A DNA stretch of 64,000 nt from a virus, in IMG/VR virus record IMGVR_UViG_3300045988_085380, positions 96,001 through 160,000 of that record. One strand, given 5' to 3'. Position 1 is the first letter of the stretch, and each line of letters opens with the position of its first letter. A program made the position numbers and the translations under genes. A model generated the notes under the pieces. The model did no database searches. It saw nothing but the letters and a program-made list of their open reading frames with translations, and was not told the DNA's origin. This document shows, piece after piece, positions 23,491-26,318 of the stretch.

Positions 23491-23928
23491 ATGTGTTGGA
23501 TGGGTAATGCTACAGCTATTAAAAAGATAGCTGAAAGAGATTTCTATGTCTATAAAATAGGGCGAGTTCCATGGAATAGTATTTTTGTTAGCCATTTTAA
23601 AAATTTCGATTACATTCCTAAAGTTCGTAATAGAAAGATTCCTCTAATAGTTCAGTGTCCTTGTAGAGATACTTATATAATACAAGAGGGTTATCATTCT
23701 TACAAGTGGATAGCTATAGATAATACTAATCCATATGAGAGATGTTTACATTTAGGTAACTATGATCCTACCTTAAAGGAAAATTTATCACTATATGAGT
23801 ATTGTTGTATAGGTACATTTATAATTCCTAAAGGCGCTAAATACTTTGAGAACGAGTGTGGTTGGATAGTATCTTCTGAAATTATTTATACTGGTAAATA
23901 TTTAAGAATAAGTAATTTTAACAAATAA
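23491..23928 (+). CDS. MCW-family paralogue 1 (unknown function)
   Basis: Starts MCW; shared motifs VYKI, EGYHSY, TFIIPKGAKY...VSSEIIYTGKYL. Confidence 0.7.
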   Translation: MCWMGNATAIKKIAERDFYVYKIGRVPWNSIFVSHFKNFDYIPKVRNRKIPLIVQCPCRDTYIIQEGYHSYKWIAIDNTNPYERCLHLGNYDPTLKENLSLYEYCCIGTFIIPKGAKYFENECGWIVSSEIIYTGKYLRISNFNK

Positions 23929-23930
23929 TT

Positions 23931-24374
23931 ATGTGCTGGATTGAAATTAAAGATAATATAAATGTTCAAATTGCTGATAAGGGCTTTAAGGTTTATAAGA
24001 TAGTATTAGATGCTAGTAAGCAATCTTGTAAATCTATTGTTAGAGGCTTTAATTATACAGTAGACACTCTATATACTATACCCACTATAGAATATGAAGT
24101 ATTTAATCACCATTATAGAGAAATCAAAATAGAAAAGGCATACCACAGTTATACTGGAATACATTTTATATGCGGTACTTCTTACTGTATTCACGATGGA
24201 GCAACTAGATGTAGAGACTTGTTATTTGGAAATAGAGCAGTATGTATTCCTTTCGAAAATAAGGCTTATATAGCAACTTTTATAATCCCTAAAGGTGCTA
24301 CATATATTATAAATACTAAAGGTGAAGTTGTATCCGATAAAATCATTTATACTGGTAAACATTTAAAACTATAA
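23931..24374 (+). CDS. MCW-family paralogue 2
   Basis: MCW..., VYKI, KAYHSY, TFIIPKGATY...VVSDKIIYTGKHL. Confidence 0.7.
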   Translation: MCWIEIKDNINVQIADKGFKVYKIVLDASKQSCKSIVRGFNYTVDTLYTIPTIEYEVFNHHYREIKIEKAYHSYTGIHFICGTSYCIHDGATRCRDLLFGNRAVCIPFENKAYIATFIIPKGATYIINTKGEVVSDKIIYTGKHLKL

Positions 24375-24378
24375 GACT

Positions 24379-24969
24379 ATGTGTTGGACTTGTAATATTA
24401 ATAAATTAAAAGCTCAAACAGCTAAAGAAGATATTAATGTATATAAAGTAGTTAAAAAAGCTACTAAAAAGTCTTGTGTATCTCTATTTATGGATTATAC
24501 TTATTATTCAAAGGATATACAACCTTCTTTAACTTTAGGAGTAATAATTGAATCTAGTTCAATTTTTGCAAAAATTACAGAAGGTTATCATAGTTACTCT
24601 TCTGTAAATTTCGTATGCGATTCAATAGTGGAAGGAATCCTTGGAGGTTATGTAAAAACTATACAATGTGGAAATCGTAAGGGAACATTTAGAGTAGACA
24701 ATTCTTTATATTTAGCTGCATTTATAATTCCTGTAGGTTCTGTATATTTTACAAATGAAGAAGGTGTAATAGTATCTAATAAAATGGCAAAAATATTTAA
24801 ATGTAAGGGCATTCCTTATTATATTACAGGATGTTCTGACAAGCTAACAGCATCAGTAGTTGCAATTAAAAATCGCTGGGGAGTTACTCCAGGTGATTTA
24901 GTTGAGGTTGAATCTATTGATGATACAAATGCTCATATAGTAGATAAGTCTAAATTCTATTCTGAGTAG
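24379..24969 (+). CDS. MCW-family paralogue 3 with about 50-aa C-terminal extension (ends TAG-TAA)
   Basis: MCW..., VYKV, EGYHSY, AFIIPVGSVY...IVSNKM, then a unique tail. Confidence 0.7.
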   Translation: MCWTCNINKLKAQTAKEDINVYKVVKKATKKSCVSLFMDYTYYSKDIQPSLTLGVIIESSSIFAKITEGYHSYSSVNFVCDSIVEGILGGYVKTIQCGNRKGTFRVDNSLYLAAFIIPVGSVYFTNEEGVIVSNKMAKIFKCKGIPYYITGCSDKLTASVVAIKNRWGVTPGDLVEVESIDDTNAHIVDKSKFYSE

Positions 24970-24984
24970 TAACAATATTTATCT

Positions 24985-25335
24985 ATGCGGTAGAGTTTAA
25001 TAGCTCTCAAGGGGGATACCTATATAGTCGCGAATATTATAGGACGGATTGATAAGGAAACGGAAACAATGAATGGGTAATTCTAGTAACCCCCAGGAAT
25101 TTGTAAACGAAAGTTTCGAAGTACGTTTAATTCGTAAGTCTCCCACTGCGAAGTTTCAATCGTTGTATCTGATTAAAGATTTGTGTACTTAATTAGGGAA
25201 AAGAGAAGTTACCTACATAATCCGGAGTGTGTAGGACAGGTGATAAGGCGAAACATGATTATTATCTAAGTAGTCGAAGTACATTCGATTCGTGCTACTT
25301 CTCCAAAGTCTTTGATAGACTGAAATGCCAGGTTT
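24985..25335 (+). ncRNA. two tandem related structured RNA elements (candidate novel ncRNA)
   Basis: Unit a has CCTATA/TATAGG and unit b CCTACA/TGTAGG (covarying stems). Shared TAGGAC-R-G..TGATAAGG..GAAAC and TCGAAGTAC..TTCG. Unit b is closed by GAGAAGT/ACTTCTC. GC-rich and ORF-free. Confidence 0.45.
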
Positions 25336-25402
25336 CATAGGAGTATATTAACTAATTAGTTAGTATGCTCCTTTTTACGTTTAATACTTAAAAAGTAAGC
25401 TT

Positions 25403-25864
25403 ATGTGTTTTTGGAAATCGAAACAAAGTAAAGTGTTAAGAGCTAAAAGAGATATAGTGGTTTATAAAATAGGTGACTTTGCTGATAAGGACACTTTTGT
25501 ACCTTATTATATGAATAGCTTTACCTATAAAACTAATGTACCATGTCGAATATGTCCTGATTTTAAGAGCAATGCTATAACAATAGGATTTCATGGATAT
25601 ATAAATATACTAGTAACTGTTGATAATCCTTCAGGACTTAACGCCATTGTGCAGAAAAATGATAAATATAGATCAGTAATTGCTATATACGGAACATTTC
25701 AATATACATTATATTTGGGTAGGTTTATAATACCTAAAGGTTCAATTTATTGTGTTAATGAATCAAATAAGATTGTGTCTAATCGAATGACTTATACTGG
25801 ACAATATGTTAGTGTGAGAGACATCTCTAATATTAATTTGAAAGAATTTTTTAATTCAATTTAA
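25403..25864 (+). CDS. MCW-family paralogue 4 (MCF start)
   Basis: MCF..., VYKI, GFHGY, RFIIPKGSIY...IVSNRMTYTGQYV. Confidence 0.7.
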   Translation: MCFWKSKQSKVLRAKRDIVVYKIGDFADKDTFVPYYMNSFTYKTNVPCRICPDFKSNAITIGFHGYINILVTVDNPSGLNAIVQKNDKYRSVIAIYGTFQYTLYLGRFIIPKGSIYCVNESNKIVSNRMTYTGQYVSVRDISNINLKEFFNSI

Positions 25865-25874
25865 TATCAAGCTT

Positions 25875-26318
25875 ATGTGTTTTATTAGAACAAAAGAAAG
25901 TAAGGTACTAGTAGCTAAAAGAGGTATTAAAGTGTACAAAATAGGTACTTATGCTGATGAGAGTACTTTTAAATCATTCTTCTATGATAATTTTGACTAT
26001 CCTGTAAATCAATTAGTAGTTGAACCAGTTATATTTGCAGATTCAATAGAATATGGATTACATAGTTATCTTAACTGTATATTATATCCACTATATCTAG
26101 CTGCTGTAGATTTATATACTCAAGGAAGTCTTCGATATACTTTATCTCTATCACAGTATTCAATATTTTTAGGAGAATTTCTTATTCCTGCAGGTACTCT
26201 GTATTGTTTAAATAGTAGTGGTGAAGTAGTATCAAATAGGCTTATATATACCGGTAACTATATAAAAGTACAGCCACATAAAAAATATGATACAAGAAAA
26301 TTATGGAAAGAAAATTAG
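25875..26318 (+). CDS. MCW-family paralogue 5 (MCF start)
   Basis: MCF..., VYKI, GLHSY, EFLIPAGTLY...VVSNRLIYTGNYI. Confidence 0.7.
   Translation: MCFIRTKESKVLVAKRGIKVYKIGTYADESTFKSFFYDNFDYPVNQLVVEPVIFADSIEYGLHSYLNCILYPLYLAAVDLYTQGSLRYTLSLSQYSIFLGEFLIPAGTLYCLNSSGEVVSNRLIYTGNYIKVQPHKKYDTRKLWKEN

Follow-up and report, generated by a model that had tools for sequence, protein, structure and literature searches.

Among the known N-terminal-cysteine proteins, those of the SRAP family (HMCES, YedK; PF02586) have an invariant Met-Cys start, an N-terminal cysteine that is reactive after removal of the methionine, and an active-site histidine. Ntn amidohydrolases, such as the class II glutamine amidotransferases and penicillin V acylase / bile salt hydrolase, carry a catalytic Cys1 which is exposed by removal of the methionine or of a propeptide. 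HINT (Hedgehog/intein) domains are all-beta, about 135-150 amino acids (aa) long, and have a cysteine as the first residue, often followed by phenylalanine. Here we describe a family of small phage proteins that begin with Met-Cys and are encoded by an array of five genes in a 64,000-nucleotide stretch of virus DNA, referred to below as the window. The window corresponds to positions 96001-160000 of IMG/VR record IMGVR_UViG_3300045988_085380, the 177,642-bp genome of a gut phage, with direct terminal repeats. We found that the likeness of this family to the known N-terminal-cysteine proteins is limited to the Met-Cys start, and that it has no function, fold or name in the libraries and literature searched.

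The five genes of the array are as follows.

23491-23928, forward strand: copy 1, 145 aa, MCW start (family hidden Markov model (HMM) E 4.7e-40; own orthogroup of 8 rows, SH-aLRT 100)
23931-24374, forward strand: copy 2, 147 aa, MCW start (modelled with AlphaFold2; 880 relatives by word-seeded search)
24379-24969, forward strand: copy 3, 196 aa, MCW start (core 24379-24785 plus fused tail 24786-24969)
25403-25864, forward strand: copy 4, 153 aa, MCF start (orthogroup of 10 rows, SH-aLRT 96)
25875-26318, forward strand: copy 5, 147 aa, MCF start (orthogroup of 6 rows, SH-aLRT 99)

A sequence-only reading of the window, made before this analysis, had reported five adjacent and strongly divergent genes with Met-Cys-Trp/Phe starts. 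The listing of open reading frames (ORFs) bears out the five genes, their coordinates and their starts. All five open with ATG-TGT/TGC-TGG/TTT, and in each case the ATG is the earliest ATG, GTG or TTG past the preceding in-frame stop; as no earlier start codon is possible in any of the five, the Met-Cys start is not an artefact of start choice. Adjacency holds for copies 1-3 and for copies 4-5, but 433 nt (24970-25402) lie between copies 3 and 4. The divergence was also borne out, with the other copies showing 30-38% identity to copy 1 in a MAFFT alignment. Residues M1 and C2, V-Y-K, Y41, the His of (G/A)xH(S/G)Y, F-x-I-P-x-G-x-x-Y-x-x-N and V-S are invariant in all five; thus the motifs described by the sequence-only reading are indeed shared, except for the C-terminal YTG, which is missing from copy 3, whose end is deleted. 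The family HMM scores the five copies at E 1e-33 to 1e-40, and their similarity is therefore far beyond chance. The whole genome contains exactly these five family copies.

Beyond this genome, the word-seeded search with copy 2 found 880 proteins, many of them on 180-190-kb contigs, and an exhaustive profile search found 3100 clusters (50% identity) at E<=1e-3, of which 530 have E<=1e-10. The cluster of copy 5 alone has 78 members (proteins of 146-161 aa, on contigs of up to 191 kb). Members are about 120-180 aa long, mostly basic (median isoelectric point (pI) 8.7) and beta-rich. Among the best 150 representatives, 128 start with MC (MCW 105, MCF 15, MCY 5, MCL 2 and MCQ 1) and the remainder are mostly fragments; among the copies in the loci that we fetched, 143 of 149 have the MC start. 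We aligned 279 unique sequences to the HMM to assess conservation, with residues numbered according to copy 2. Cys2 is present in 253 of 257 sequences, the Lys of VYK in 265 of 266, Tyr41 in 264 of 268, the His of GYHSY in 257 of 269 (with Tyr in 10), the Pro of IIPxG in all 260 and the Ser of VS in 255 of 259; the Gly of IIPxG also falls within the 95-100% conservation band. A constellation of Cys2, Lys23, His72-Ser73(-Tyr74), Pro120-x-Gly122, Tyr125 and Ser135 is kept across very distant phages. The conservation of Cys2 and the His, which the sequence-only reading had noted for the five copies, is thus a property of their homologues, and Cys2 is kept even in the Xanthomonas phage XacN1.

The AlphaFold2 model of copy 2, built from a 114-sequence alignment, has a predicted local distance difference test score (pLDDT) of 93.0, a predicted template-modelling score (pTM) of 0.87, sixteen strands and no helix. 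A compact distant member of 118 aa (from locus L042) is likewise modelled with high scores (pLDDT 94.6, pTM 0.86), with 11 strands in the same order as in copy 2 and one helix, which lies past the HSY motif in place of the variable hairpins. In both models residues 1-6 are coil and strand, and there is no N-terminal helix. Foldseek searches of the two models against the PDB gave no significant match (best E 0.25 and 0.037, template-modelling (TM) scores 0.1-0.35). The best partial match, 2aua_B, a protein of unknown function (probability 0.77, TM 0.35, E 0.34), was judged not significant. A search of BFVD returned eight matches at E<1e-3, all of them uncharacterised phage proteins. As modelled, the predicted fold is shown to have no counterpart among solved structures.

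Searches of sequence libraries gave a similar picture. No Pfam family matched any of the five copies at E<=1, NCBIfam had no match to the family, and the best hit of a sequence-profile search against the PDB was a chance LDH segment (E 0.11). PADLOC-DB matched none of the five copies and no distant member, apart from a single noise-level hit (E 0.006) to ORF434 of XacN1. The only library family matched by any copy is phrog_13450, which carries no function annotation; the matches are weak (E 1.9e-5 for copy 3, 1.1e-4 for copy 5, and 2.3e-3, 9.1e-3 and 0.039 for the others) and cover profile positions of about 1-120 of 153. Against this genome alone, the same model gave E values of 1.5e-6 to 0.009. 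The five copies are thus probably, by profile similarity, distant members of phrog_13450, although this PHROG covers a small part of the roughly 3100 clusters at 50% identity. The literature on crAss-like phages, XacN1 and DUF7666 does not mention the family. As no HMM or fold search gave a known fold, its earlier description as uncharacterised stands.

SRAP offers the best functional analogy for a putative N-terminal 1,2-aminothiol: the Met-Cys start that is invariant there opens each of the five copies and about 94-98% of members. However, SRAP proteins have about 200 aa or more, an alpha/beta fold and an MCGR start and are usually single-copy, whereas members of this family have 120-180 aa, are almost all beta and are multi-copy; 114 members gave no SRAP match at E<=0.1, and there was no SRAP among the PDB or Foldseek matches. 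The Ntn fold is a four-layer alpha-beta-beta-alpha structure of more than 200 aa, in contrast to our models of 118-147 aa with no helix or one, and no Ntn match was found in Pfam, NCBIfam or the PDB. HINT domains resemble the family in their size and all-beta character and in having a His about 70 residues after the cysteine, as in Cys2...His72. The family nevertheless lacks the TxxH block (its His motif, G-[YF]-H-S-Y, has no Thr at position -3), the terminal His-Asn and an N-extein (only Met precedes Cys); there was no HINT match in Pfam, and the Foldseek hits listed include neither an intein nor a Hedgehog structure. The C...H...N order and the Cys-Trp pair seen here are similar to those of papain. 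In papain-like, NlpC-P60 and CHAP peptidases, however, the catalytic Cys begins a helix that packs against a beta-sheet bearing the His and a third polar residue; an N-terminal helix of this kind is absent from both models, and no HMM or Foldseek match to these peptidases was found.

Several other candidates were considered and set aside. DUF7666 (PF24703) matched one of 114 members (E 0.0046) and none in this genome; its sole matches in XacN1 and in four further phage records, at E 0.014, are located away from the array. Cupin-like motifs (PxG..[H/Y]..N and GxH) were dropped because no cupin was among the Foldseek matches. A motif resembling the 'GYHGT' of ADP-ribosyltransferases was dropped as well, since no fold match to these enzymes was found and the window copies do not conserve the Glu. 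Resemblances to SET, LytTR, sortase and L,D-transpeptidase proteins were supported by no search.

Distant relatives are present in phages of Xanthomonas. Five of the BFVD matches (E 2e-6 to 2e-4) have accessions beginning with A0A292G, which we took to be XacN1 proteins because four of their lengths (135, 152, 172 and 226 aa) equal those of ORF436, ORF434, ORF438 and ORF435. An HMM search of the XacN1 record (AP018399) revealed five tandem copies at 308005-310446, corresponding to ORF434-438 (E 6e-13 to 4.5e-8). Four of these start with MCL or MCM, and all carry VxK, GxHS(F/Y), IPxG..YY and (A/V)S..L. An alignment of gut-phage with XacN1 copies shows no change at M, K, H, P and G, and 15 of its 16 sequences have Cys2. 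A further phage, Xoo-sp13, has one family copy. The XacN1 and Xoo-sp13 proteins (annotated 'predicted ORF' / hypothetical protein) are equally uncharacterised, and they differ from the window copies in several respects: identity is just 11-22%, the host is gammaproteobacterial as opposed to Bacteroidota, a helix follows HS(F/Y) where window copies 1-3 have beta-hairpins, and Gly takes the place of the Asn of YYxN. On the basis of the XacN1 array, the family spans phages of Bacteroidota and Gammaproteobacteria with the Met-Cys start kept. Neighbours of that array include genes for a MazG pyrophosphohydrolase and an ABC ATPase and, 2.6 kb off, a CCA tRNA nucleotidyltransferase; the distance from the family genes to the latter is 2.6-3.6 kb in XacN1 and Xoo-sp13. 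Two weak family matches (E 0.003) were also seen elsewhere in XacN1, at 26923-27216 and 345718-346011; they lie in the long terminal repeats and are identical to each other.

A pattern scan of 185,579 species genomes found a single locus, on a 3.9-kb contig of a Cytophagales metagenome-assembled genome, and an HMM search of 401 sampled Bacteroidota genomes had one positive, which is the same contig. IMG/VR, by contrast with these genome sets, yielded 39 family loci in a pattern search with a narrower alignment. Searching GenBank phages by tblastn with copy 2 and two distant members gave either the unannotated record MT835539 only or nothing. Within the searches made, the family is essentially found only in viral DNA; this needs to be read within that scope, as the PHROG 13450 model also had a match in the B. 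thetaiotaomicron control genome, possibly a prophage copy or noise.

The HMM scan of the fetched loci shows that nearly every phage locus has 2-7 tandem copies, regardless of lineage, the exception with a single copy being the 6-kb contig L045. Complete relatives of 178-188 kb have 4-7 copies in one or two arrays. Copies split by a frameshift into two ORFs each occur in the arrays of L021, L027, L030, L031, L035, L036 and L037, and there are fusion proteins of 2-4 family domains (P0256 and P0250, the latter with four). In a quick maximum-likelihood tree with SH-aLRT support, each window copy falls into its own orthogroup together with orthologues from other phages (support of 98 for copy 2 and 85-90 for copy 3; for the others, see the list above), and the five are not mutual nearest relatives. 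The clade comprises roughly nine or ten orthogroups of which each genome retains a subset; for example, the 'MCWSNN' type of L001, a related 187-kb contig, is absent from the window. Judging from this tree, the five copies are old, long-separated paralogues rather than recent duplicates. Overall, the family is shown to undergo birth-and-death dynamics, with copies gained, lost and broken. A multi-copy early accessory family is a familiar phage pattern.

The ratios of nonsynonymous to synonymous substitution (dN/dS, by NG86) of copies 1-5 against their orthologues are 0.42, 0.36, 0.41, 0.35 and 0.63, compared with 0.27-0.71 for neighbouring small genes and 0.16 for an AAA ATPase. Such values indicate that the copies are under purifying selection, relaxed to the degree commonly seen in accessory genes. 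A comparison of 120 close orthologues of copy 2 places the most variable positions at residues 55-64 and 81-112, while residues 1-30 and 113-147 are quiet; the variable patches differ in length as well as in sequence, as seen in the spread of segment lengths. The sequence-only reading had described diversifying accessory genes. The copy number of 2-7, the frameshift-broken copies and the two hypervariable patches agree with that description; the dN/dS values, which do not stand out from those of neighbouring small genes, and the age of the paralogues do not, as the genes are old and under gene-wide purifying selection. The anti-defence or host-range role that was proposed along with it is pure conjecture.

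The reading that we use as our working model, to which we give a probability of roughly one in three (0.35), is that these proteins are small enzymes or covalent traps which would use an exposed N-terminal cysteine, would be made early in infection, and would have their targets set by the variable patches. Methionine aminopeptidase accepts Cys at position 2 (P1'), and for this reason we propose that Met1 would be cleaved off so that the mature protein begins with cysteine. The thiol and the free amino group of this residue, a 1,2-aminothiol, could then act as the reactive centre, with the conserved Lys, His, Ser and Tyr joining it in one reactive or ligand pocket and assisting it. The variable patches (about 55-64 and 81-112) may direct each paralogue to a target of its own; the 2-7 variants carried by a phage would be made early and act as a battery on related host molecules in host takeover or counter-defence, and the gain, loss and decay of genes would track changes in hosts. 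A number of observations argue against this model. About 6% of full-length members do not have Cys2 (position 2 is G, S, R or Y, or the N-terminus is a different one) and yet keep the remainder, including the His; XacN1 ORF435 and the internal domains of the four-domain protein P0250 also lack the Cys. In 10 sequences that are otherwise intact and retain the Cys, Tyr stands in place of the His, a swap typical of a stacking or hydrogen-bonding ligand contact and not of a general base, and losses of Cys and His are uncorrelated. While both residues of the Cys/His catalytic pair suggested by the sequence-only reading are conserved, these exceptions disfavour a strict dyad. Moreover, gene-wide positive selection is not seen in any of the five copies, neither a conserved partner gene nor a defence-related neighbour was found in about 12 lineages, and the early timing of expression is taken from gene position only. 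To our knowledge, no member has a known catalytic activity, ligand or target.

Much of this evidence would be expected if the proteins were non-catalytic binders, such as small inhibitors, decoys or ligand sponges, which we consider about as likely as the working model. In that case the beta-core and polar residues would serve to bind a small ligand common to the family, or simply to stabilise the fold; different host proteins would be bound by the variable patches, and Cys2 would be a structural residue or a metal or ligand contact and not a nucleophile. The His-to-Tyr replacements in intact members, the independent loss of Cys and His, and the persistence of the H and IIPxG...S motifs in Cys-less full-length members and internal domains all favour such binders, as does the focusing of variability in two patches, which resembles a binding surface. 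Tandem multi-domain fusions such as P0250, with its four domains, would fit avidity or multivalent binding, and many phage counter-defence proteins are small binders. However, a reactive set (Cys, Lys, His, Ser) conserved at 95-100% from gut crAss-like to Xanthomonas jumbo phages is rare for binders, and fold stability on its own would hardly account for a Met-Cys start kept at about 94-98%; the basic character of the family also excludes one kind of binder, the DNA mimic. We regard as unlikely, by comparison, that the proteins are directed at nucleic acids, i.e. that they are basic beta-proteins binding or processing RNA or DNA, for example with the Cys reacting with aldehydes such as abasic sites, in the manner of SRAP/HMCES/YedK proteins, or handling tRNA or other small RNAs. 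Their median pI of 8.7 and the tRNA genes around the array point in this direction, along with the conserved RNA candidate enclosed by the array (see below), the CCA tRNA nucleotidyltransferase gene near the XacN1 and Xoo-sp13 arrays and the MazG gene beside that of XacN1, and N-terminal nucleophiles recur in DNA-lesion enzymes (Cys2 in SRAP, Pro1 in Fpg/Nei). Proximity to tRNA genes is nevertheless weak evidence, as these mark plastic accessory regions in many phages; the family has no relation in sequence or fold to SRAP, Fpg or any nuclease, it has no conserved partner gene, and 2-7 divergent copies would be unexpected for a generic lesion-shielding or tRNA enzyme. Finally, we consider it highly improbable that these are virion or assembly accessory proteins (decoration or ejected cargo, with lectin-like variable loops) and not early effectors. 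Variable loops on a beta scaffold do resemble receptor-binding modules, and lectins and phage tail or neck proteins are among the best Foldseek rows, none of which is significant; but these matches, at TM 0.1-0.25, are noise, the genes lie in the standard-code early/replication arm with no structural-module neighbours, the proteins have no signal peptide, and the XacN1 copies are found among genes of nucleotide and tRNA metabolism.

Taken in its fullest form, the enzyme or covalent-trap model would add a new class of phage proteins with an unseen beta-fold and a reactive N-terminal Cys, present as 2-7 target-specific paralogues that modify or trap host molecules early in infection, in gut crAss-like phages as well as in jumbo phages of Proteobacteria; this complete picture is tentative, and we hold it to be rather doubtful. 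The crAss-like gut phages rank with the most abundant viruses associated with humans, and the majority of their early genes have yet to be explained. The large size of the family, its near-restriction to viral DNA, its conserved reactive residues, an unmatched fold predicted with high confidence and turnover-prone arrays together point to a conserved biochemical activity on variable host targets, as one would expect of host-takeover or counter-defence factors. As the cultured phage XacN1 carries the family, the question is open to ordinary genetics and biochemistry, and if the N-terminal Cys proves to be catalytic, a new fold would be added to the short list of N-terminal-nucleophile proteins.

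The 196-aa length of copy 3 was examined by comparison with relatives, and its gene can be divided as follows.

24379-24785, forward strand: copy 3 core, ending in ...IVSNK, with the last beta-strand (xYTGxYxKL) gone, as seen in the alignment to L001
24786-24969, forward strand: unrelated small ORF fused in frame to copy 3 (64 aa in relatives; begins with MNKMARIFKCK in L001)

In L001, the orthologue of copy 3 has 145 aa, ends in ...VSNKIKYTGRYLKL, and is followed by two small membrane-protein genes and then by the 64-aa ORF (MNKMARIFKCK...). By BLASTN, window positions 23816-24785 correspond to L001 positions 5899-6855, and window positions 24778-24982 to L001 positions 7313-7516. The junction lies at an 8-nt microhomology, AATAAAAT, found in the window at 24778-24785 and in L001 at both 6848-6855 and 7313-7320. 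Because the BLASTN segments switch at this shared octamer, about 457 bp are absent relative to L001; the loss spans the final beta-strand of copy 3 and the two small membrane-protein genes found in relatives. Among 15 listed members of the 224-member 90% cluster of the copy 3 protein (40 of 224 read), the 196-aa form comes from this genome only, and the other 14 have either 61-62 aa or 145 aa. On the strength of these alignments, the 196-aa copy arose through a lineage-specific deletion that fused it to an unrelated gene of 64 aa; alternatively, the deletion junction may be an assembly artefact. For annotation purposes, the 'extended' 196-aa copy is thus a fusion artefact made by deletion and represents no new domain architecture.

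The forward-strand arm of the window encodes helicases, a primase, exonucleases, NrdD and ATPases, and the array lies within this standard-code early/replication arm, among tRNA genes and small genes of unassigned function. Genes for tRNA-Tyr (22790) and tRNA-Ile (23102) are found just upstream of it, and about 4 kb of small genes without assigned function follow on its 3' side, as the sequence-only reading had noted. Immediately around and within the array, we identified four further features.

23206-23240, forward strand: terminator-like hairpin at the end of the upstream tRNA unit, immediately ahead of the operon with copies 1-3; stem similar to that at 25339-25372
23270-23488, forward strand: 72-aa ORF, first gene of the unit, no family match (90% identical to its L001 counterpart; dN/dS 0.29)
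25011-25394, forward strand: structured-RNA candidate between copies 3 and 4, within the ORF-free gap 24970-25402 (433 nt)
25339-25372, forward strand: terminator hairpin and T-run at the end of the RNA candidate; stem core TAATTAGTTA in common with 23206-23240

The 72-aa ORF, copies 1-3 and the non-coding element between the two hairpins form a predicted transcription unit, and copies 4-5 open the next. A 12-mer, AACACATTAACA, lies upstream of the 72-aa ORF (23257-23268). In the relatives L010, L012, L017-L020, L035, L037 and L043, the 12-mer is found after the terminator of the RNA candidate and directly before MCF-type copies (alignment columns of about 485-500), and the window's counterpart of this second site has diverged to TTTAATACTTAAAAAG. 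No non-family gene is common to the surroundings of the arrays in at least four of about twelve lineages, and it follows that there is no conserved partner gene among them.

The RNA candidate has a fold energy of -104.7 kcal/mol on the forward strand, with a z-score of -2.2 (reverse strand, +1.2), and has no match in Rfam. In about 30 loci of related phages its sequence identity is 71-95%, higher than that of the genes beside it, and its place there is always within the array; some loci carry only its 3' half (positions 230-433). RNAalifold predicted 88 pairs, of which just 2 show compensatory change. The element accepts insertions at hairpin tips, ends in the terminator, and contains an internal duplication (CCTATA...TATAGG / CCTACA...TGTAGG), each part of which is followed by GATAAGG and a GAAGTACGTT..ATTCGT hairpin.

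Other features of the window were observed in passing. Few long ORFs are found under the standard code in positions 1-8000, and an amber-suppressor tRNA (anticodon CTA) is encoded at 8034-8106 on the reverse strand. A match to the RAGATH-1 hammerhead ribozyme at 12423-12507 (forward strand, 70.6 bits) is above the Rfam gathering score. The stretch at 20121-20672 has 93% nucleotide identity to one of IAS virus that is annotated 'DNA primase'. Just upstream of the tRNA-Tyr and tRNA-Ile genes, positions 22023-22628 (forward strand) encode a predicted lipoprotein of 201 aa with an HEFGHGF zinc-metalloprotease motif and a weak Matrixin match (E 5e-4). The phage also encodes a transfer-messenger RNA (30716-31047, forward strand) with the tag GEVNNTSVSYAIAA.

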